This document shows positions 37,766 through 48,139 of a stretch of DNA of 64,000 bases, piece after piece. The first letter of the stretch is position 1. Each line of letters starts with the position of its first letter. Position numbers and translations under genes: made by a program. The DNA is taken from IMG/VR virus record IMGVR_UViG_3300032248_000171, positions 1 to 64,000 of that record; one strand, written 5' to 3'. The notes beneath the pieces are model-generated. The model made no database searches, was not told the origin of the DNA, and was given only the letters and a program-made list of their open reading frames with translations. The stretch comes from a virus. Its lineage: Duplodnaviria; Caudoviricetes.

Positions 37766-40258
37766 ATGAGGTTTTATACGAACATTGAACAGGCGGGGAA
37801 TCGCATCCTCGTTCGTGGTTACGAAAATGGTGATAGAGTTCAGTATCGTGTAAACTATAATCCTAGTTTGTATGTGGTTGCTAACAAGCAGACCGATCAT
37901 AAGAGCCTAGATGGGCGTTACCTCAAAGAGGTGCGCCCTGGTTCTATTAATGATTGTCGCCAGTTTATCAATCAGTATGAGGGTGTGGAAGGGTTTGAAA
38001 TTCATGGAAATACTAGATACTTGTATCAGTATATCAACGAGGCATATCCCGAAGATGAGATTCGTTTCGATTCGTCACTCGTTCGCACCTTTACTATGGA
38101 TATTGAGACAGGTGCTGAAAATGGATTCCCTGACATTGAAACAGCAGATCAAGAGATTCTGCTTATTTCTCTCCGTGATTCTTTTACAAACAGGATCACT
38201 GTCTGGGGATCAAAGAGTTTCAAGAATGAAGACAGACAAGTTGATTACATCCATTGCGACAATGAGACGAAACTCCTTTCGTGCTTCCTCAAATGGTGGC
38301 AGGAGAATACTCCAGACGTAGTAACTGGTTGGAATGTTCAGCTCTTCGATATTCCATACATCTGTAATCGAATGAATCGTGTGCTTGGTGAAGAGCATAC
38401 TAAACTGCTCTCGCCTTGGAAACTTGTTTCTAGTCGTGAAATTTATATCAAGGGTCGCAAACAGATTGCGTATGACATCACTGGTGTTGCGTGTTTAGAT
38501 TACCTCGAACTTTATAAGAAGTTTACATACACAAACCAAGAATCATACCGTCTCGATCATATCGCGTCGGTAGAACTTGATGCCAAGAAACTTGACCACT
38601 CTGAGTTTGATACCTTCAAAGAATTCTACACTAAGGATTGGGATAAGTTTGTCAAGTATAACATCATTGACGTTCGCCTTGTTGACCAATTGGAAGACAA
38701 GATGAAGTTGATTGAACTTGCTTTGACAATGGCATATGACGCTAAGGTAAACTATGAGGATGTTTATTCTCAGGTTCGTATGTGGGATAACATCATCTAC
38801 ATCTATCTGGATAAGATGAATGTGGTGATTCCTCCTAAGAAAGATAGCGTCAAGAATGACAAGTATGCTGGTGCGTATGTGAAAGAACCTGTGCCTGGTA
38901 TGTATGACTGGGTGGTGAGCTTTGACTTGAACTCACTGTATCCTCACTTGATCATGCAATACAACCTGTCGCCAGAGACCCTCCTAGACCGCCGTAGCAG
39001 CGTCAACGTTGACATGCTGCTGGATAAGGCATTCGACACTAGCGACCTTGTGGGGGAGACCCTGTGCGCCAATGGGACGCACTACACCACCAAGCAGCAG
39101 GGGTTCCTGCCCAAACTGATGGAGAAGATTTACCAAGACCGAACCATCTACAAAAAGAAGATGCTTGCTGCCAAACAGCAGTATGAGAAAACTCCAACAA
39201 TTGAGTTGAAGAAAGAGATTTCTCGTTGCAATAACATTCAGATGGCACGTAAGATTCAACTCAACTCTGCTTATGGTGCTATTGGTAACGAGCACTTTCG
39301 TTATTACAAACTTGAAATCGCTGAGGCAATCACTCTTTCTGGTCAGCTTTCTATTCGTTGGATTCAGAATAAGATGAATGCTTATCTCAATAAGATTCTA
39401 AAAACAAAAGGTGCTGATTATGTTATTGCTTGTGATACCGATTCCATGTATCTTAATCTGGGCCCTCTGGTTGAGACTGTATACAAGGGAAGAGAGAAAA
39501 CTGCTGAGAGCATTGTCACGTTCCTTGATAAGGTCTGTGCAATGGAACTTGAAAAGTTTATTGAAAGTTCTTACCAAGAACTGGCGGACTACCTCAACGC
39601 CTACGCGCAGATGATGAAGATGAAGCGGGAGAATATTGCTGAGCGTGGTTTTTGGACCGCCAAGAAACGCTATGTTCTCAACGTGTGGGATAGTGAAGGT
39701 GTGCGTTATGCTAAACCAAAGATGAAAATCTGTGGTATGGAGACGGCACGTTCTTCCACGCCAGCTTACTACCGTGATAAACTGGAGCAAGCATATCGTA
39801 TCATCGTTACTAAAACTAATGAGGATGTGCTTGAGTTTATCAATGAAATCAAGGAAGATACTAAGAAACAGAACTACCTTGATATTGCATTCCCTCGTGG
39901 TTGCAATGGTCTGAAGAAGTATCGAAGCAGTGCTGACATCTATGCTAAGGGTTGTCCCATTCAAGTACGTGGTGCGTTGCTGTATAATTACTATGTAAAA
40001 AAGAATAACTTAGAACACAAATATCCTTTGATACAGGAGGGGGAGAAGATTAAGTTTATGTATCTTAAGACTCCCAACACTATTGGCGAAAATGTAATCG
40101 CTTTCTTTCAACAACTTCCTAAGGAACTTAACCTTGAGAAGTATGTTGACTACACCACTCAGTTTGAAAAGTCATTCTTCGAACCATTGAAAAATGTGCT
40201 AGAATGTATTGACTGGCAATACGAACGTCGTGGTTCACTTACAAGTTTTTTTAGTTGA
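37766..40258 (+). CDS. g43: Family B DNA polymerase gp43
   Basis: Exonuclease DIET and GWNVQLFDIPY; polymerase SFDLNSLYP, KIQLNSAYG and CDTDS. Promoter-like TTGCGG-N18-TAGAAT at 37710-37739. Confidence 0.99.
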   Translation: MRFYTNIEQAGNRILVRGYENGDRVQYRVNYNPSLYVVANKQTDHKSLDGRYLKEVRPGSINDCRQFINQYEGVEGFEIHGNTRYLYQYINEAYPEDEIRFDSSLVRTFTMDIETGAENGFPDIETADQEILLISLRDSFTNRITVWGSKSFKNEDRQVDYIHCDNETKLLSCFLKWWQENTPDVVTGWNVQLFDIPYICNRMNRVLGEEHTKLLSPWKLVSSREIYIKGRKQIAYDITGVACLDYLELYKKFTYTNQESYRLDHIASVELDAKKLDHSEFDTFKEFYTKDWDKFVKYNIIDVRLVDQLEDKMKLIELALTMAYDAKVNYEDVYSQVRMWDNIIYIYLDKMNVVIPPKKDSVKNDKYAGAYVKEPVPGMYDWVVSFDLNSLYPHLIMQYNLSPETLLDRRSSVNVDMLLDKAFDTSDLVGETLCANGTHYTTKQQGFLPKLMEKIYQDRTIYKKKMLAAKQQYEKTPTIELKKEISRCNNIQMARKIQLNSAYGAIGNEHFRYYKLEIAEAITLSGQLSIRWIQNKMNAYLNKILKTKGADYVIACDTDSMYLNLGPLVETVYKGREKTAESIVTFLDKVCAMELEKFIESSYQELADYLNAYAQMMKMKRENIAERGFWTAKKRYVLNVWDSEGVRYAKPKMKICGMETARSSTPAYYRDKLEQAYRIIVTKTNEDVLEFINEIKEDTKKQNYLDIAFPRGCNGLKKYRSSADIYAKGCPIQVRGALLYNYYVKKNNLEHKYPLIQEGEKIKFMYLKTPNTIGENVIAFFQQLPKELNLEKYVDYTTQFEKSFFEPLKNVLECIDWQYERRGSLTSFFS

Positions 40259-41272: not shown

Positions 41273-42657
41273 TGAGTGAAAGAATCGAGACAACTATATT
41301 GCGTAACCTTCTCTGTAATGAACCCTATTACAGAAAGGTTGTGCCTTTTGTGAAACCAGATTACTTCAATGAAACCCATGAAAAGGTTATCTATGAAGAA
41401 GTGTGGAACTTTGCTAGCAACTATGAGATGTTGCCAACAGCAGAAGTATTGATTATCAATCTTGAAAGTAGGAAAGATTTAAATGAGGAAGTATATCAAA
41501 ACGCAGTTAAGACGATTCAAGGTCTTACTACTGCCCCAGTCGAACACAACTGGTTGCTCGACACCACAGAGAAGTGGTGTAAAGACAGAGCAATCTATCT
41601 CGCCCTCCTTGAGTCAATCAAGATTGCGGATGGAGGCAATCAAAAAGTATCACCAGATGCGATCCCCGCTATACTTCAAGAGGCCCTGGCAGTATCGTTC
41701 GACGAACATGTAGGTCACGATTACCTAGAGAATGGTGCTGAGCGTTATGCTTTCTACCATTTGACTGAGGAAAAAATCCCATTCCACCTAGAATACTTCA
41801 ATAAGATTACGAAGGGTGGTCTACCCAACAAGACATTGAATGTAGCACTTGCTGGCACAGGTGTTGGTAAGTCACTCTTCATGTGTGACTATGCTGCTAA
41901 CTGCCTATCACTTGGTCGTAATGTTCTCTACATTACTATGGAGATGGCAGAGGAAAAGATTGCTGAGCGTATTGATGCTAACTTGTTTAACGTCAATATC
42001 AAAGACCTTGTAGATTTACCAGAATCAATCTTTAATAATCGTATTAACGAACTGAAGAGAAAAACACAAGGTCGTCTTATCATCAAAGAATATCCAACAG
42101 CTGCTGCTCACGTTGGTCATTTCAAAGGTCTTCTCAATGAACTATCATTGAAGAAGGTATTTAAACCCGACATTATCTTTGTCGATTATCTAAACATCTG
42201 TGCTTCATCAAGATATAAAGGAGCAATTGTAAACTCTTATACCTATGTCAAGGCAATCGCAGAAGAACTTAGAGGATTGGCAGTCGAACACAACGTTCCA
42301 ATTGTCACTGCTACACAGACTACTAGGAGTGGTTATGGTAATAGTGATGTCGATCTCACTGATACCAGTGAGTCTTTTGGGTTGCCAGCTACTGCTGACT
42401 TTATGTTTGCTCTCATCGCTACAGAGGATCTGGAGAAAGATGGCAAGATAATGGTGAAGCAGTTGAAGAACAGATACAATGACCCCACCATGTATAAGAG
42501 ATTCTTAGTTGGGGTTGACAGAGCACGAATGAAGCTCTATAATGTTGATAATGCTGTTGACTTATCCTCTGATAAAGAAGAGGAATATGACTTCGAAGAG
42601 ATGGCAGCGAAACAAAGCAAAGATACTAAAAGCAAATTTACCAGTTTTATTTTATGA
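41272..42657 (+). CDS. g41: Replicative helicase gp41
   Basis: LAGTGVGKSLFMC, IFVDYLNIC, SESFGLPATAD and KQLKNRY motifs. Confidence 0.97.
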   Translation: MSERIETTILRNLLCNEPYYRKVVPFVKPDYFNETHEKVIYEEVWNFASNYEMLPTAEVLIINLESRKDLNEEVYQNAVKTIQGLTTAPVEHNWLLDTTEKWCKDRAIYLALLESIKIADGGNQKVSPDAIPAILQEALAVSFDEHVGHDYLENGAERYAFYHLTEEKIPFHLEYFNKITKGGLPNKTLNVALAGTGVGKSLFMCDYAANCLSLGRNVLYITMEMAEEKIAERIDANLFNVNIKDLVDLPESIFNNRINELKRKTQGRLIIKEYPTAAAHVGHFKGLLNELSLKKVFKPDIIFVDYLNICASSRYKGAIVNSYTYVKAIAEELRGLAVEHNVPIVTATQTTRSGYGNSDVDLTDTSESFGLPATADFMFALIATEDLEKDGKIMVKQLKNRYNDPTMYKRFLVGVDRARMKLYNVDNAVDLSSDKEEEYDFEEMAAKQSKDTKSKFTSFIL

Positions 42658-43064
42658 GTAAGCAAGTTGACCTAGTTAAGTATACTCAGTTTGTTGATGG
42701 CACTACGAGTTATCCTTCTAAATCTAATGAAGAATTCATTGCTCGTATCCGACAACTTGCTGAGGGTGATGTTCCCATCGCTCGTTTGATGACTGCTGCT
42801 GTAGGTCTCTCGGCTGAAGCAGGTGAGTTCACTGAGATTATTAAGAAGATTGCCTTTCAAGGTAAGGAACTGACTGAAGATAACCGTACCCATCTTATCA
42901 AAGAACTTGGTGATGTGTATTGGTATTTCACTCAAGCAATGCTTGGGTTGGATGTTGACCTGAATGAAGTAGTGCTGACCAATGTTATGAAACTCACTGC
43001 TCGATACCCAGAGGGTGCCTTCGATGTGTTCCGATCCGAGAACCGCGTAGAAGGCGACATCTGA
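42654..43064 (+). CDS. mazG: MazG-family nucleotide pyrophosphohydrolase
   Basis: GLSAEAGEFTEIIKK..FQGK...KELGDVYWY...N..KL..RYP. Confidence 0.93.
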   Translation: MSKQVDLVKYTQFVDGTTSYPSKSNEEFIARIRQLAEGDVPIARLMTAAVGLSAEAGEFTEIIKKIAFQGKELTEDNRTHLIKELGDVYWYFTQAMLGLDVDLNEVVLTNVMKLTARYPEGAFDVFRSENRVEGDI

Positions 43065-43121
43065 CCCGAACCTGTGCTATGATGGGGGTGACCTAAATAA
43101 AGGAGACCCCCTTCTGGCACA

Positions 43122-44330
43122 ATGAGTAAGAACACTCACCTAGAGCACCTAGAAGACAGCATCTTGTTCGACGGAGAACAAGGGGCCAAAGATGCGTTTG
43201 CCTTCCTAGACTCTCTCACTAAAACTTTTAGTGGCACTCAAAACAGTAATTTTAAAATTACCACCAAATGGGATGGAGCACCTGCTATCATTTGTGGTAT
43301 TGATCCAGAATTTAAAAAATTCTTTGTGGGCACAAAATCAGTGTTTAACAAAGATGGTAAAATAAACTATACCGAAGATGATATCCAAGCAAATCATGGT
43401 CATGCTCCTGGTCTAGTTGAAAAATTAAAAGTAGCATTAGAATACTTCCCACAATTAAACATCAAGGGCATCGTTCAAGGTGACTTATTATTTACTGATG
43501 AAGGTAAGGATGCTAAGATTGATGGGGAAGATTATTTTACTTTCACTCCTAACACCATTACCTACGCTATTCCAAAAGGCACTCCTGCCTACGAGAAAGC
43601 TAAGAAGGCAAAGATTGGTGTGGTATTTCACACTCGTTATGTGGGAACTAGCATTGCTTCTTCTCATGCTACCTTTGGTGTAGACATTTCTAAGTTCGTG
43701 GAAACTGATGACATCTTTGTTATCAGTGCTGAAGTAGATACTTTGGGTTCTAATTTTCTTTTAAATGCTAGAGAAAAAAGAACTTTGGATACTATGACTA
43801 GAGTTGGTCTAGCACAAGTGAAAGGGTGTAAAACTTTACTGAATGATATTTCTGTATTGATTGAAGCTAATGATTTGCTTACTGTTGGCCCTCGTCTCAA
43901 AACTTACTTCAACACCTATGTGCGGGAAGGTCGCAAAGTAAATAATGTTCCAGGATTCATCAACAACTTCAAAAAATATTTTGAGGGTGTTGTGATGAAG
44001 GAAGTTGACAAAGCAAAGATGGCAAAGACTAAAGCAGCAAAACTTAAAAAACTTTATGATGGTCTGGAGTTGATTGACAACAACCTGGAGGCATTTAAAA
44101 AACTGGTAGTGCTATATAACACTATAAACAATGCTAAACTTTTCTTTGTTAAGAAGTTGGAATCTGCTGATTCAACCCGCACCTTCCTTCGTACCGAGCA
44201 TGGATTTAAAGTCACTGCGCCTGAGGGATTTGTTGCTATCAAAGATGGCGCTGCCACTAAGCTAGTTGACCGTTTGGAGTTTAGTGTTGCTAACTTTACT
44301 ATAGATAAAAACTGGGTTAAAGGAGACTAA
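43122..44330 (+). CDS. Conserved T4-like protein with a putative covalent nucleotidyltransferase (RNA/DNA ligase-like) fold
   Basis: TTKWDG (motif I KxDG), IVQGDLLF (III), PEGFVA (IV), TKLVDR (V); N-terminus KNTHLEHLED. Confidence 0.65.
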   Translation: MSKNTHLEHLEDSILFDGEQGAKDAFAFLDSLTKTFSGTQNSNFKITTKWDGAPAIICGIDPEFKKFFVGTKSVFNKDGKINYTEDDIQANHGHAPGLVEKLKVALEYFPQLNIKGIVQGDLLFTDEGKDAKIDGEDYFTFTPNTITYAIPKGTPAYEKAKKAKIGVVFHTRYVGTSIASSHATFGVDISKFVETDDIFVISAEVDTLGSNFLLNAREKRTLDTMTRVGLAQVKGCKTLLNDISVLIEANDLLTVGPRLKTYFNTYVREGRKVNNVPGFINNFKKYFEGVVMKEVDKAKMAKTKAAKLKKLYDGLELIDNNLEAFKKLVVLYNTINNAKLFFVKKLESADSTRTFLRTEHGFKVTAPEGFVAIKDGAATKLVDRLEFSVANFTIDKNWVKGD

Positions 44331-44884
44331 TGAAACGAGTAGTCGTAACTTTTGGAAGATTTAATCCTCCAACCACAGGGCACGAAAAACTACTAGATGC
44401 TGTTAAGAAACAGGCAGGCACTGACGACTATAAAATCTATACAGGTCACACTCAAGATAAGAAAGGAAAAAATCCTCTACCTTCTGATGTGAAGGTAGAG
44501 TTTATGAAAGAGATGTTTCCCTCTCACAAAAATCATATTATGTATGACAACAAGTTAAAAACTATTATTCACGTTCTTCAAAGTTTACAGGGTGAGTATG
44601 CTGATTTAACTTTAGTGGTTGGAAGTGATAGAGTTAGCGAAATGGATTTACTTATTCAGAAGTATAATGGAAAAGATTATACTTTTAGAAAGTTAGAAAC
44701 AGTTTCTGCTGGTGAGCGTGACCCAGATGCTGATGATGTATCTGGAATGTCAGCAAGTAAAATGCGAAAAGCTATTGCTGAAGATGATATGATTACCTTT
44801 ATGTCTGGTCTTCCTGATGGATTCAAAAAAGATTCTAATAATGTAAAAAAATTGTATAAAATAGTTAAGGAGAATTTACCCTAA
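44330..44884 (+). CDS. HxGH-type nucleotidyltransferase (cytidyltransferase/NMNAT-like)
   Basis: TFGRFNPPTTGH, KNPL, VVGSDR and MSASKMR motifs. Confidence 0.88.
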   Translation: MKRVVVTFGRFNPPTTGHEKLLDAVKKQAGTDDYKIYTGHTQDKKGKNPLPSDVKVEFMKEMFPSHKNHIMYDNKLKTIIHVLQSLQGEYADLTLVVGSDRVSEMDLLIQKYNGKDYTFRKLETVSAGERDPDADDVSGMSASKMRKAIAEDDMITFMSGLPDGFKKDSNNVKKLYKIVKENLP

Positions 44885-46845
44885 TGGGATATAATTTTAG
44901 AGTAACTGACAAAGTAGAAGGTATTACTGCCTTACTTGAGTCTGATAAAACTGGCGGCGTTACGCCAACTATCTACGGAATGATATGGGATTATGCTATA
45001 GAAAAATTAAATATGGATGATATCGAGATAGGAAATTATCTCGCTATTGATAAAACCAAAAGTGTATTTAAAGTGCATCCACAGGTTGTTATAAAAGTAG
45101 ATCCTACTATTGAAGAAGGTAGTTCATCTGATAAAGCTAAAAGATTTATAGAAGCACTTAAAAATAAAATAGGTGTTGGAAATTATCCAGACGCACTTGA
45201 TCGTATTGGCAGAGGAAAAGGTAATGTTGCTCTTGGTAGCATTTTTGATGTGGGTGCTGGGTCTGGCGGATCTGCAATTTCAACAACTGACCAAGAAAAT
45301 TTACAAGTATTAGCTCTTGCGTGGTATCAAGCTTGTAATACTTTGGGAACTTCAACTAGTGCTGATGCTTTTAATGCTTTCGTACAGGTAGCAGCAGATT
45401 CTACGTGGAAAGATGCAAATGAATATAGAAGAGTTGGTAGTATGGTAGCTGGAAGTACTCGGTTTAAATTAAAATCTTCTACTGGATCATCTGGGTGGGT
45501 TACTCCTAAACTAGGAACTGCTAATCTTGTTGGCATTTCTAAAGTTTGTAAAATAGCACATAAAGATAAAGATTGGATAACCGCAGCGTGGAGAAATGCG
45601 GATAAATTACATAGCAGTCATTCACAAATCAATTACAAATCATCTGATCTTTATATATTTTCTCATGTAGAAGCGACTGGATATAAATGGTTTAAAGAAA
45701 AGTATAATGAACTTAGGAAAAAACTAGTGCCAAATCCACTGGGAATAAATGTGATGATGGAGGGAAATAAATGGAATCCAGCTGATGCTTTAGCTGTAAA
45801 CATTAATTCTTTTAGAAAAAAAGAAAATGTATCAAAAGCTACTACGATAATAAATGGAAACACAACAGATCATCTTGCGGCTCTTGCTGCCTACAATAAT
45901 TTAATTCTCCAATGGTTTGAAGAAGGGAATATTATTCCTATATCTTTAAAAAAATCAAGTAAATCTCCTAAGATTAAATTTATGAATTACAGTGGTGTGG
46001 GTGGAACAGACAAAATGCAAGATTCTGTCATGGAAACAATGAGTGATATTTCCAAAGCGAAGACAGAAAAACAAAAACTTGATATCATGAATAAACTTGT
46101 AATCATTGATAAGGTAGAATATAATGTAAACATTCTTAAAACTAAAGTATATTTTTCTTTAGATCTCAACAGGAATGGAACTCCAGATCCTTCAGAACAA
46201 TTTTATTTTGATGCTAGACCATTTGGTGGTGACAAAGTAGAAGATATTAAAGTTCAACTATTGCCAGCTAAGGGAGCATCTGCTGCCTTGGGTAGAGCAG
46301 AATTTTCTGTGATGGAAGAGTTGATAAAAAGTTACAATTCTACTCATTTTAATTTTTTGAAAAAGAAGAGACAAGATGCAGTTAATTATATTTTAAAGAA
46401 AAGGGGAATGAAAGAATCCGAAATAAGAGGACCATTTCGTGCAACCCTAGAACAATTTAAAAAAATAGATTTATTTACTAGATTTGGAAAGGGTAGTAGT
46501 AATTTTTCGGATACTCTTATTGGAAAATTATACAATAATCAGGTGGGGAAAGAGATACTGGCGGAATACATAGGGTCTATAAGTAATACTAAAGGATCGC
46601 ATATAGACTCTTTGAGTGGTAAATTAGATAATTCAAAACATTATAGAGTTAAGTTACAATCAAATGAATTTGCGAGTTTATTTGATATCTCGGATGTCTC
46701 TGAAATAATACGCAAAAAAATATTACTTACTATCTTCTTTTATATTTCGTCTAGAGGTATATACGCATTTTTGGATGATAGTGATGTTGAAAAAATAAAA
46801 AATAGCGCAATAAGATCTTCTCCCTTCATTATTCTAGGTGGATAA
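44884..46845 (+). CDS. Large hypothetical protein, putative PD-(D/E)xK nuclease
   Basis: 653 aa; NKWNPADALAV...IIPISLKK motif pair; visibly more AT-rich codon usage than its neighbours. Confidence 0.55.
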   Translation: MGYNFRVTDKVEGITALLESDKTGGVTPTIYGMIWDYAIEKLNMDDIEIGNYLAIDKTKSVFKVHPQVVIKVDPTIEEGSSSDKAKRFIEALKNKIGVGNYPDALDRIGRGKGNVALGSIFDVGAGSGGSAISTTDQENLQVLALAWYQACNTLGTSTSADAFNAFVQVAADSTWKDANEYRRVGSMVAGSTRFKLKSSTGSSGWVTPKLGTANLVGISKVCKIAHKDKDWITAAWRNADKLHSSHSQINYKSSDLYIFSHVEATGYKWFKEKYNELRKKLVPNPLGINVMMEGNKWNPADALAVNINSFRKKENVSKATTIINGNTTDHLAALAAYNNLILQWFEEGNIIPISLKKSSKSPKIKFMNYSGVGGTDKMQDSVMETMSDISKAKTEKQKLDIMNKLVIIDKVEYNVNILKTKVYFSLDLNRNGTPDPSEQFYFDARPFGGDKVEDIKVQLLPAKGASAALGRAEFSVMEELIKSYNSTHFNFLKKKRQDAVNYILKKRGMKESEIRGPFRATLEQFKKIDLFTRFGKGSSNFSDTLIGKLYNNQVGKEILAEYIGSISNTKGSHIDSLSGKLDNSKHYRVKLQSNEFASLFDISDVSEIIRKKILLTIFFYISSRGIYAFLDDSDVEKIKNSAIRSSPFIILGG

Positions 46846-46863
46846 ATATCAATAAAACAATAC

Positions 46864-47154
46864 ATGAAATCACTTAAAGATTTACTACAGCAATCGAAAC
46901 AGAAAACCTATATGCTGGGGCAAGCATTTGCTGAAGGCACATGGGTTGAGAATACGAATGGAGAGGTGGGAAAGATTCATCGTCGTGGAGTTAACTATAT
47001 TATTGCTGTAACTTCTGAGGGTAAGATGTTTCGTTCGTGGGTAAAGGATATCAAAGAACATTGTGGATGTGAAGCACCTAAGCAAACAACTGCTAAGGAT
47101 AGTATCAAGAGTTTTATAAATAAGAATAAAAGAAAAAAGACCAATGACGATTGA
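46864..47154 (+). CDS. Small SH3/KOW-like beta protein, late
   Basis: GTWVEN..GEVGKIHRRGVNYIIAV..GKMFRSWVKD; late promoter at 46842-46848. Confidence 0.75.
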   Translation: MKSLKDLLQQSKQKTYMLGQAFAEGTWVENTNGEVGKIHRRGVNYIIAVTSEGKMFRSWVKDIKEHCGCEAPKQTTAKDSIKSFINKNKRKKTNDD

Positions 47155-48139
47155 AGAGTTTTCTAAACAACTGATTGAAAAATCATTGCTCAACCTTGCT
47201 GAGAAGTCGGGAACATGTAATAGCACTGGTGCTGGAACATCCTGCCCTAGACATGGAGATGCTGATTGTAACTCCTCTAAGCAGAATCGTGCTGAAGGAT
47301 TGATGCCAGAAGAATTAGTAGGAACTACTTATGAAATAGTCATGGAAGATGGCGAAACAATCATCATCGAAAAAGTTAAGATGGATGGCAAGGATGACAA
47401 CGGATTCAAGTCATGCTGGAAGGGATATAGAAAAACAGGCACCAAAATGAAGGGCGGCAAAGAAGTTAATAACTGTGTGAAGTCGGAAGAGTGGGAAGGA
47501 AGCAAAGAAGATAAGGGTGAAGATAAGAAACTTGCTAAGAAGAACAAAATGTCTCTCAAGGATTGGGAGAAATCAGATGCTGATAAGAAACATGACATGA
47601 AGAAAGAAGAGACGGAGAAGAAAGAATCAGAGAAAGACGAAGGTGGTAAGCATAAAGAATACAAACATGCTCCAGGCAAAGAAGAGAAGGGTGAGAAGAA
47701 GACTGAGAAGGAGATGAAGAAAGAAGCAAAGGATTATCTACCTGGAAATCAAGAGAAACTAGATGCTAATAAGAATGGTAAACTAGATGCTGATGATTTC
47801 AAAAAACTTCGTGCTAAGAAAGGAAAGACAGTAAAAGAAATGTGGCAGGTTGCTGAGGGTAAGAAAGTAGAAATCGAAATCATGCCTCAGGTTGATACTC
47901 CTAATGATCCAGAGCCACCTAAGAGTCAGGAAGATTTAAAGAAGAAGACAAAGAAGAAGCAAGCAAACGAGCAAGTTGAACTAGAAGAAAAAAAACTTTC
48001 TGCTAAGGAAACTGCTAAGAAAGAAAAGTTTGTTAAGGGTATGAAGAAAAAGTATGGTTCTTTCAAATCAAAGTATGGTGAGAAAGCACAATCGGTGATG
48101 TATGGATCTGCCACCAACATGGCAAAGAAGGCAGCATAA
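47144..48139 (+). CDS. Lys/Glu-rich modular protein, candidate internal head polyprotein
   Basis: Modules CPRHGDADC, CWKGY..GTKMKGGKEVNNCVK, EF-hand-like LDANKNGKLDADDF and KEKFVKGMKK..YG..VMYGSAT; TATAAATA at 47115. Confidence 0.7.
   Translation: MTIEEFSKQLIEKSLLNLAEKSGTCNSTGAGTSCPRHGDADCNSSKQNRAEGLMPEELVGTTYEIVMEDGETIIIEKVKMDGKDDNGFKSCWKGYRKTGTKMKGGKEVNNCVKSEEWEGSKEDKGEDKKLAKKNKMSLKDWEKSDADKKHDMKKEETEKKESEKDEGGKHKEYKHAPGKEEKGEKKTEKEMKKEAKDYLPGNQEKLDANKNGKLDADDFKKLRAKKGKTVKEMWQVAEGKKVEIEIMPQVDTPNDPEPPKSQEDLKKKTKKKQANEQVELEEKKLSAKETAKKEKFVKGMKKKYGSFKSKYGEKAQSVMYGSATNMAKKAA

Follow-up and report, generated by a model that had tools for sequence, protein, structure and literature searches.

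A predicted ligase-superfamily protein and its HIGH-type nucleotidyltransferase partner in T4-like marine phages

Introduction

RNA end-healing and sealing systems combine a kinase, a phosphatase, a template-independent nucleotidyltransferase and a ligase (PMC7824862). T4-like cyanophages and pelagiphages, which are among the most abundant viruses of the ocean, have been described in reviews since 2005 as phages in which no DNA ligase, no RNA ligase and no polynucleotide kinase can be recognised (PMC1079782, PMC2984593); for the cyanomyoviruses in particular no homologue of gp30 or rnh was found, ‘distant homologues not yet identified’ being left possible (PMC2984593, PMC1079782). Here we describe a module of four closely packed + strand genes from an uncultured virus (IMG/VR record IMGVR_UViG_3300032248_000171), found in ‘the window’, which is the first 64 kb of the 102-kb record, the record itself being 55% complete. 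The core of the module is a member of Pfam family DUF6267 that is strongly predicted, on the basis of a structural model, to represent a previously unrecognised ligase family with the nucleotidyltransferase fold of ATP-dependent RNA and DNA ligases. Its gene is closely tied to that of a nucleotidyltransferase of the (T/H)xGH (‘HIGH’) class, with a small, predicted beta-rich, C-terminal domain: the two are neighbours or are fused, and fusions of either order exist.

Results

The module and its setting

The module lies between mazG and downstream virion-associated genes, in a window whose genes are nearly all on the + strand. Upstream, the order gp43 DNA polymerase (37766-40258), UvsX, gp41 helicase and MazG (42654-43064) is that of T4-like cyanophages, and the source of the window is an uncultured T4-like (Kyanoviridae-like) phage. 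The DNA of the window had no nucleotide-level match among cultured phages; in a protein comparison, the DUF6267 protein of Synechococcus phage S-MbCM7 was the best match among cultured phages, at 58% identity. The module comprises the following features:

43065..43121, + strand: spacer between mazG and the DUF6267 gene, 57 nt, with CTAAATA (43093-43099) and an AAGGAG ribosome-binding site, both within a stable RNA hairpin.
43122..44330, + strand: DUF6267 protein, 402 amino acids (aa); PF19782, E 4.5e-117; invariant motifs, a confident AlphaFold2 model and structural matches to ligases.
44330..44884, + strand: HIGH-class nucleotidyltransferase, 184 aa; PF01467, 30.2 bits; phrog_3041, E 2.9e-64.
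44884..46845, + strand: phrog_1462 (T4-GC_533) family protein, 653 aa; phrog_1462, E 3e-14; candidate PD-(D/E)xK-like nuclease.
46864..47154, + strand: small protein, 96 aa, on sequence evidence a C-terminal domain split from the HIGH nucleotidyltransferase; matches phrog_395 positions 212-298.

Stop and start codons overlap as TAATG at 44328-44332 and 44882-44886, with AAGGAG ahead of each. An earlier reading of this DNA (the original prediction) had listed these open reading frames and overlaps, together with peptide motifs in the 402-, 184- and 653-aa proteins, and all were present where it had placed them.

Ligase motifs are invariant in the DUF6267 family

The 402-aa protein is a full-length member of DUF6267, and a Pfam search returned no other match for it. 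The family is large: its metagenomic members form at least 8000 clusters when grouped at 90% identity and 2467 when grouped at 50%, and it was matched in 466 cultured phage records, nearly all of them cyanomyoviruses; the few others are phages of Pelagibacter, Methylophilales, Vibrio, Pseudoalteromonas and Stenotrophomonas. In T4-like marine phages the gene exists in thousands of copies labelled ‘hypothetical’. A search of the literature for DUF6267, and for ‘cytitidyltransferase’, the label borne by orthologues of the 184-aa transferase in cyanophage genomes, found no papers, and the ligase-like family appears undescribed.

The protein carries K49-W-D-G52, Q119-G-D121, E368-G-F-V371 and K380. 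An alignment of 107 representatives, 33-54% identical to the window protein, contained 15 invariant columns, including K49, D51, G52, K72, D121, Y148, H170, E368, G369 and K380, in which K49-x-D51-G52, K72, D121, Y148, E368-G369 and K380 follow the order of ligase motifs I, Ia, III, IIIa, IV and V. Judged at the sequence level the motifs exceed chance, because they are invariant in homologues of such low identity. This bears out the claim that nucleotidyltransferase motifs I, III, IV and V are present in order, and K49, the lysine of KxDG whose conservation had been made a check on that claim, was found in every sequence. An N-terminal H-L-E-H-L-E-D element was invariant in the DUF6267 family only.

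A ligase-type fold is predicted

An AlphaFold2 model built from the 107-sequence alignment scored highly (predicted local distance difference test, pLDDT, 94.8; predicted template-modelling score, pTM, 0.91). In it the motif residues lie on or beside strands 44-49, 67-70, 117-125, 146-151, 369-374 and 377-381, and a helical bundle of about 145 residues (208-351) is inserted between motifs IIIa and IV. The chain stops 22 residues past motif V (K380), with one short helix there, leaving the protein without an OB domain.

A Foldseek search of the PDB with this model placed T4 Rnl1, human Lig1 and Lig3, archaeal ligases and the LigA adenylation domain among the best rows, with weak scores. The full-span structural matches were filled by more than 15 ligase structures of distinct families; the top ones were RNA-ligase-like, with DNA ligases also present. 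In BFVD the DUF6267 family itself was matched, including a 591-aa fusion from S-PM2 (TM 0.95), and more distant matches were annotated viral RNA ligases (E 0.016-0.07). By sequence, hhalign comparison of DUF6267 with single sequences of T4 Rnl1, Rnl2 and gp30 was not significant, and the sole match to the Rnl1 family was exactly motif IV-V. A search of the protein found no PF09511 (RNA_lig_T4_1) domain, which would have placed it in the Rnl1 profile, and the OB domain after motif V and PF01068 membership that mark ATP-dependent DNA ligases were also absent. The predicted nucleotidyltransferase-domain fold is similar to that of solved ligases; the ligase-type fold claimed for the protein is predicted with high confidence, and DUF6267 very probably belongs to the ligase superfamily.

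The transferase is coupled to DUF6267

For comparison of neighbourhoods, 80 related virus loci were fetched (cited below, with other loci, by L number). The transferase was downstream of DUF6267 or fused to it in 39/44 loci with enough downstream sequence, and a transferase domain was found within 16/37 DUF6267 representatives longer than 450 aa, C-terminal in 11 and N-terminal in five; the S-PM2 protein is one such DUF6267-transferase fusion. The co-occurrence of the two genes, which the original prediction had made a condition of its module, is therefore well founded. Stand-alone genes were also found between the two core genes, encoding an AAA_33/zeta-type kinase (18 loci) or adenylate kinase (11 loci).

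The transferase family is wider than the module, with matches in 558 phage records, and it exists outside the module, because Erwinia jumbo phage pEa_SNUABM_49 (358 kb; L089 4528-5327) encodes a HIGH transferase of 28% identity, with a gene for 93 aa after it, and no detectable DUF6267. Transferase proteins of other lineages reach 600-1100 aa, with a C-terminal DUF5824, and long transferase proteins bear N-terminal additions: a Pol-beta nucleotidyltransferase (PF01909, PF18765, MTPAP-like), an AAA_33 P-loop kinase or a PAP2 phosphatase. Unusual neighbours and fusions (loci L012, L011, L016 and L052) include adenylate kinase directly after DUF6267, and PAP2 plus Pol-beta nucleotidyltransferase, or AAA_33 kinase, on the transferase. 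A single metagenomic protein (P0264, 1325 aa) unites DUF6267, transferase, RimK ATP-grasp and Zn-protease domains.

A distinct HIGH-transferase subfamily and its detached domain

The 184-aa protein had been claimed as an HxGH-class transferase with an SxSxxR tail, and it is a genuine one: the PF01467 score clears the cut-off of 21 bits, and the motifs are G9-R-F-N-P-P-T-T-G-H18 and S141-A-S-K-M-R146. Within an alignment of 42 transferase sequences G9, R10, N12, P13, G17, H18, S141 and R146 were invariant, as were blocks peculiar to the family, G-S-D-R, Y-N and S-A-G-E-R-D-P-D. The further likeness to nicotinamide mononucleotide adenylyltransferase (NMNAT) and phosphopantetheine adenylyltransferase (PPAT) held in part. 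In a PDB search the nearest solved proteins were PPAT, NadR and archaeal NMNAT (E 0.02-0.08), so that weak similarity to both enzymes exists, PPAT scoring as well as NMNAT, but all curated NMNAT cut-offs were missed (TIGR01526, 28.5 vs 341; TIGR00482, 24.8 vs 112; NF006479, 20.1 vs 164). Given the weakness of the nearest solved relatives and the wide margin by which the curated models were missed, its sequence marks the protein as a distinct HIGH-transferase subfamily.

The original prediction treated the last gene of the module as a separate, SH3-like protein. The 96-aa reading frame is present, but what it encodes is better described as the split-off C-terminal domain of the transferase, an assignment made by alignment to phrog_395, a ‘cytidyltransferase’, and because in 33 related loci the same domain of about 60 aa follows the transferase domain, after a linker of about 30 aa, in a single polypeptide. 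S-MbCM7 and S-CAM1 encode the domain as the next small gene, the 96-aa protein being 40% identical to S-MbCM7 gp155. Language-model neighbours of the 96-aa protein gave hints of small beta-barrel families, below a useful score.

Canonical DNA ligases in genomes with the module

No match to PF01068, PF01653 or PF09414 was found in five complete genomes of DUF6267 phages, none to PF01068 or PF01653 in Melnitz and HTVC008M, and none to PF01068 or PF09511 in the 55% of the genome that the window's record represents; cyanophages were also absent from the ten commonest organism names in a tblastn search with gp30. Overall, 7/8 complete DUF6267 phages checked gave no match to a canonical ligase. The eighth, Stenotrophomonas phage DLP6 (L083/L086), carries the DUF6267-transferase module together with a canonical 532-aa PF01068 ATP-dependent ligase. 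The ligase reported missing from cyanophages may be DUF6267; because DLP6 has both, however, DUF6267 and the canonical DNA ligase are not simply interchangeable, the module there is non-redundant with DNA ligase, and the idea that DUF6267 simply replaces gp30 is weakened.

Expression and virion association

Late promoters of the NATAAATA type are documented for cyanomyoviruses, and late expression had been proposed for the module from a CTAAATA box, which lies 22 nt ahead of the DUF6267 ATG. The box is present, and [ACT]TAAATA was found in the 90 nt ahead of the module in 40/75 related loci, compared with 206/882 (23%) of all genes, but across the window the word CTAAATA occurs no more often than expected (9 found vs 13 expected; 8/9 on the coding strand). 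Folding of 43060-43135 gave a hairpin (ΔG -29.1 kcal/mol, z -4.7) that none of 200 shuffles equalled in stability, and CTAAATA and the DUF6267 ribosome-binding site both lie within it. Such an arrangement suggests that the hairpin masks DUF6267 translation on read-through transcripts from mazG and that late transcripts are unmasked, as those starting just past the CTAAATA box would not contain the 5′ arm. The same logic serves some late genes of T4.

Further boxes occur downstream: GATAAATA (46841-46848) stands 15 nt ahead of the 96-aa gene, and a perfect T4-type TATAAATA (47115-47122) stands inside the 3′ end of that gene, 21 nt before an overlapping 331-aa gene. As these lie inside the module, they may be internal late promoters.

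Mass spectrometry of purified S-SZBM1 virions detected a ‘cytidylyltransferase’ and the next, 457-aa, protein (both at L088 4694-7183), and did not list the DUF6267 protein (PMC9146016). The virion transferase, which corresponds to the 184-aa protein of the window plus the small domain, is 48% identical to its window orthologue. Late expression or delivery in the virion, as originally suggested for the module, is thereby supported in part, for the transferase but not for the ligase-fold protein. The 457-aa virion protein has a 22-residue Cys-flanked motif, 82% identical, in common with window 47144-48139.

The 653-aa protein and the slot upstream of DUF6267

The 653-aa protein had no Pfam or NCBIfam match and no tblastn match in 50,697 phage records, and a word-based search recovered only six relatives. 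It belongs with phrog_1462, the family of S-MbCM7 gp152, whose gene is directly upstream of DUF6267, and a hidden Markov model (HMM) built from 25 genes upstream of DUF6267 in related loci recovered it as well. Family members share invariant E138, W231, W297, P299, D301, S354, L355, K356 and G470, which in the window protein include the motifs W297-N-P-A-D301 and I353-S-L-K356. In an AlphaFold2 model (pLDDT 75.9; residues 70-130 disordered) E138 is on a helix, D301 just ahead of a strand, and S-L-K closes the next strand. A profile search of the PDB found no match, and Foldseek of the model found none at E <= 0.001; weak fold matches were to MspI and a Cas4-like protein. The model and its PD...SxK pattern point weakly to a candidate PD-(D/E)xK-like nuclease.

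A gene of the phrog_1462 family was present in 24/66 loci with room for it, and in most relatives it is upstream of DUF6267. In the window, L003 and L020 it lies between transferase and detached domain, an arrangement of the window's clade and of an S-PM2-like locus (see also L001:4391-6001). That the 653-aa protein might be the middle part of the long transferase proteins was ruled out, transferase and small domain there being only about 30 residues apart.

The slot just upstream of DUF6267 (loci L002-L082) is otherwise held by at least six unrelated ORFan families of 230-600 aa, none with a Pfam match, and genes in it often overlap the DUF6267 start codon. A common origin for all of the slot genes in one divergent family was considered and rejected, as HMM searches, a motif scan and hhalign linked only some pairs, and none to phrog_1462. 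This hypervariable slot looks like a fast-evolving accessory or specificity position.

Discussion

Late end repair as the preferred reading

The reading we prefer, and hold tentatively, with a little less than even confidence, is that the module supplies a late-expressed Rnl1-like polynucleotide ligase and a HIGH adenylyltransferase that act in end repair late in infection. Attack of K49 on the alpha-phosphate of ATP (or NAD+) would give ligase-Lys-AMP, the AMP would be handed to a 5′-phosphate end, and attack by a 3′-OH would seal the break. The helical insert (208-351) could serve as the clamp or for substrate recognition, the role of OB or C-terminal domains in other ligases. The partner transferase may nucleotidylate or otherwise prepare the end, or make the adenylyl donor of the ligase; the phrog_1462-family protein would be a loosely attached accessory, probably nuclease-like. 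Broken RNA, such as tRNA, is favoured over DNA as the substrate, because the Pol-beta nucleotidyltransferase, P-loop kinase and PAP2 phosphatase found on the transferase in relatives point to healing plus sealing.

A number of observations weigh against this reading. No Foldseek match to the PDB reached E <= 0.001 for the 402-aa model; sequence (phmmer) and family-profile (hmmsearch) searches of the PDB with DUF6267 returned only low-complexity noise; and hhalign against a 33-sequence Rnl1 alignment was not significant (2.4% probability). The best structural Z was 8.4, graded ‘middling’ by the tool, for which reason the case for a ligase rests on the consistency of the matches together with the motifs, and the Z gap between RNA and DNA ligase matches was small, at 1-2 units. 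As to the healing partners, the fused Pol-beta domain could not be equated with RlaP (it matches PF01909, PF18765 and PF22600, not PF10127), nor the neighbouring P-loop kinase with a PseT-like one (BLAST not significant, no PDB match), and we know of no HIGH-type transferase with a role in RNA repair. Finally, the DUF6267 gene lies inside the DNA replication block (gp43-uvsX-gp41-mazG ... gp61), and this position, together with the absence of a DNA ligase, fits a role on DNA equally well.

Alternative explanations

That last point leads to an explanation we consider unlikely, though the strongest of the alternatives: DUF6267 would be the ‘missing’ replicative or repair DNA ligase of cyanomyoviruses, replacing T4 gp30 and sealing Okazaki-fragment and recombination nicks before packaging, while the transferase supplied or recycled an adenylyl donor, for example by NMN + ATP -> NAD+. 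The published remarks that gp30 and rnh are missing and that distant homologues are possible (PMC2984593, PMC1079782) would fit, as would the lack of any DNA-ligase family match in the five complete DUF6267 genomes, Melnitz and HTVC008M. The gene keeps its position between gp41/mazG and gp61, a neighbouring adenylate kinase would remove the AMP that is released, the transferase is weakly similar to NadR/NadD, and DNA ligases are among the structural matches. DLP6, however, also carries a canonical ATP-dependent DNA ligase; DUF6267 lacks an OB domain, ending 22 residues past motif V, and has no LigA-type domain Ia; the top structural matches and motif Ia are RNA-ligase-like; and a late-type promoter with a masked ribosome-binding site would be odd for a replication enzyme.

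Less probable again is action of the pair on small molecules, as a nucleotide-cofactor or signal pathway for the synthesis or salvage of NAD+, a dinucleotide or a dephospho-CoA-like compound, with AMP passing from the ligase lysine to a phosphorylated metabolite. The nearest solved relatives of the transferase and its weak NCBIfam NMNAT matches are in keeping with this, as are the adenylate kinase and small-molecule-type P-loop (zeta/AAA_33) kinases among the neighbours, the RimK ATP-grasp ligase fused in one relative, the adjoining MazG, and the occurrence of the transferase family in jumbo phages without DUF6267. Nonetheless, the extra small domain of the transferase and the Pol-beta nucleotidyltransferase of relatives suit a polymer substrate, curated NMNAT cut-offs were widely missed (28.5 bits vs 341), and we know of no ligase-superfamily enzyme with a dedicated small-molecule acceptor, which counts against the idea.

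A more elaborate proposal, and an improbable one, is a two-enzyme ligase, in which the NMNAT/PPAT-like partner would produce the adenylyl donor where the ligase needs it (for example NMN + ATP -> NAD+). If it were true, T4-like cyanophages and pelagiphages would possess self-sufficient nick sealing, the long-missing gp30 equivalent, and sealing would continue when host NAD+ is depleted by defence systems or starvation.

It is very improbable that DUF6267 does something unrelated and resembles ligases by chance, through a widespread alpha/beta arrangement: the absence of a Foldseek PDB match at E <= 0.001 and the non-significant profile-profile comparison would be expected in that case, but the full-span matches are filled by ligases of many families, and the invariant residues correspond to six ligase motifs, correctly ordered and each on the expected strand. 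Scarcely credible, lastly, is a chiefly morphogenetic or virion-associated role with catalysis secondary or lost, after the manner of T4 gp63 (Rnl1) in tail-fibre attachment, for although T4 rnlA is annotated both as RNA ligase and as tail-fibre attachment catalyst, the module has late-type promoters, and the S-SZBM1 transferase orthologue and its downstream neighbour are in purified virions, the DUF6267 protein is not listed there (PMC9146016) and every catalytic motif residue is invariant across a large and diverse family (2467 clusters at 50% identity), which argues that catalysis has been retained.

Significance

The predicted ligase identity of a common gene turns the old cyanophage ligase gap into a directly testable hypothesis. 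The predicted architecture would be new for a ligase, with a helical domain inside the nucleotidyltransferase fold, no OB domain and a constant HIGH-transferase partner, and no repair or replication system described so far pairs a ligase with a HIGH transferase. Should the transferase feed or edit the reaction of the ligase, the chemistry would be new as well; it could bear on phage-host conflicts in which tRNA is cleaved or NAD+ depleted, and might yield an enzyme tool.

Comparison with known systems

The closest likeness of DUF6267 is to T4 Rnl1 (gp63) and the ligase domain of fungal and plant Trl1, with which it shares motif I (T-K-x-D-G), a motif Ia of the form F-x-x-[ST]-K-[SG] about 20 residues past motif I (compared with the T4 Rnl1 sequence), motifs IV-V of the form EG[FY]VA...K-hydrophobic, the lack of an OB domain and a phage-encoded origin. 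Unlike them, it has no C-terminal domain but the helical insert of about 145 residues between IIIa and IV, and its partner is a HIGH transferase where theirs is Pnkp. Naegleria gruberi NgrRnl (Rnl5) has an N-terminal OB domain and T4 Rnl2 a C-terminal helical domain, both lacking in DUF6267, and identity to these enzymes in structural alignments is only 11-15%. DUF6267 would fill the same gap in a T4-type replisome as T4 gp30 or the Chlorella virus DNA ligase, a gap noted for cyanophages (PMC2984593), but has none of their OB domain, latch or PF01068 match.

The transferase resembles PPAT (CoaD), NadR/NadD/archaeal NMNAT and glycerol-3-phosphate cytidylyltransferase in its G-R-F-N-P-P-T-x-G-H and S-A-S-K-M-R motifs, and has a PPAT-like K-N-P-L element, but differs from PPAT, NMNAT and glycerol-3-phosphate cytidylyltransferase in its C-terminal small domain and, in relatives, its extra domains. 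The 653-aa protein shares with type II restriction endonucleases of the CCGG group (MspI, HpaII) E...PxD...SxK on helix, strand and strand; its nearest named ESM Atlas clusters were RE_HpaII and RE_HaeIII (score 0.82, all scores being in the chance range). It differs from MspI and HpaII in having no methyltransferase partner, and its family conserves an asparagine (N368) where they have an acidic residue after the K356 position.

Taken across the whole family, DUF6267 is accompanied by the same set of activities as phage and bacterial RNA repair cassettes (T4 Pnkp-Rnl1; RlaP type, PMC7824862), that is, ligase, kinase, phosphatase and template-independent nucleotidyltransferase. The window itself, by comparison with those cassettes, has no more than the predicted ligase, its transferase partner, the small domain and the phrog_1462 protein, and the constant partner of DUF6267, the HIGH transferase, is foreign to the RNA repair cassettes described so far.

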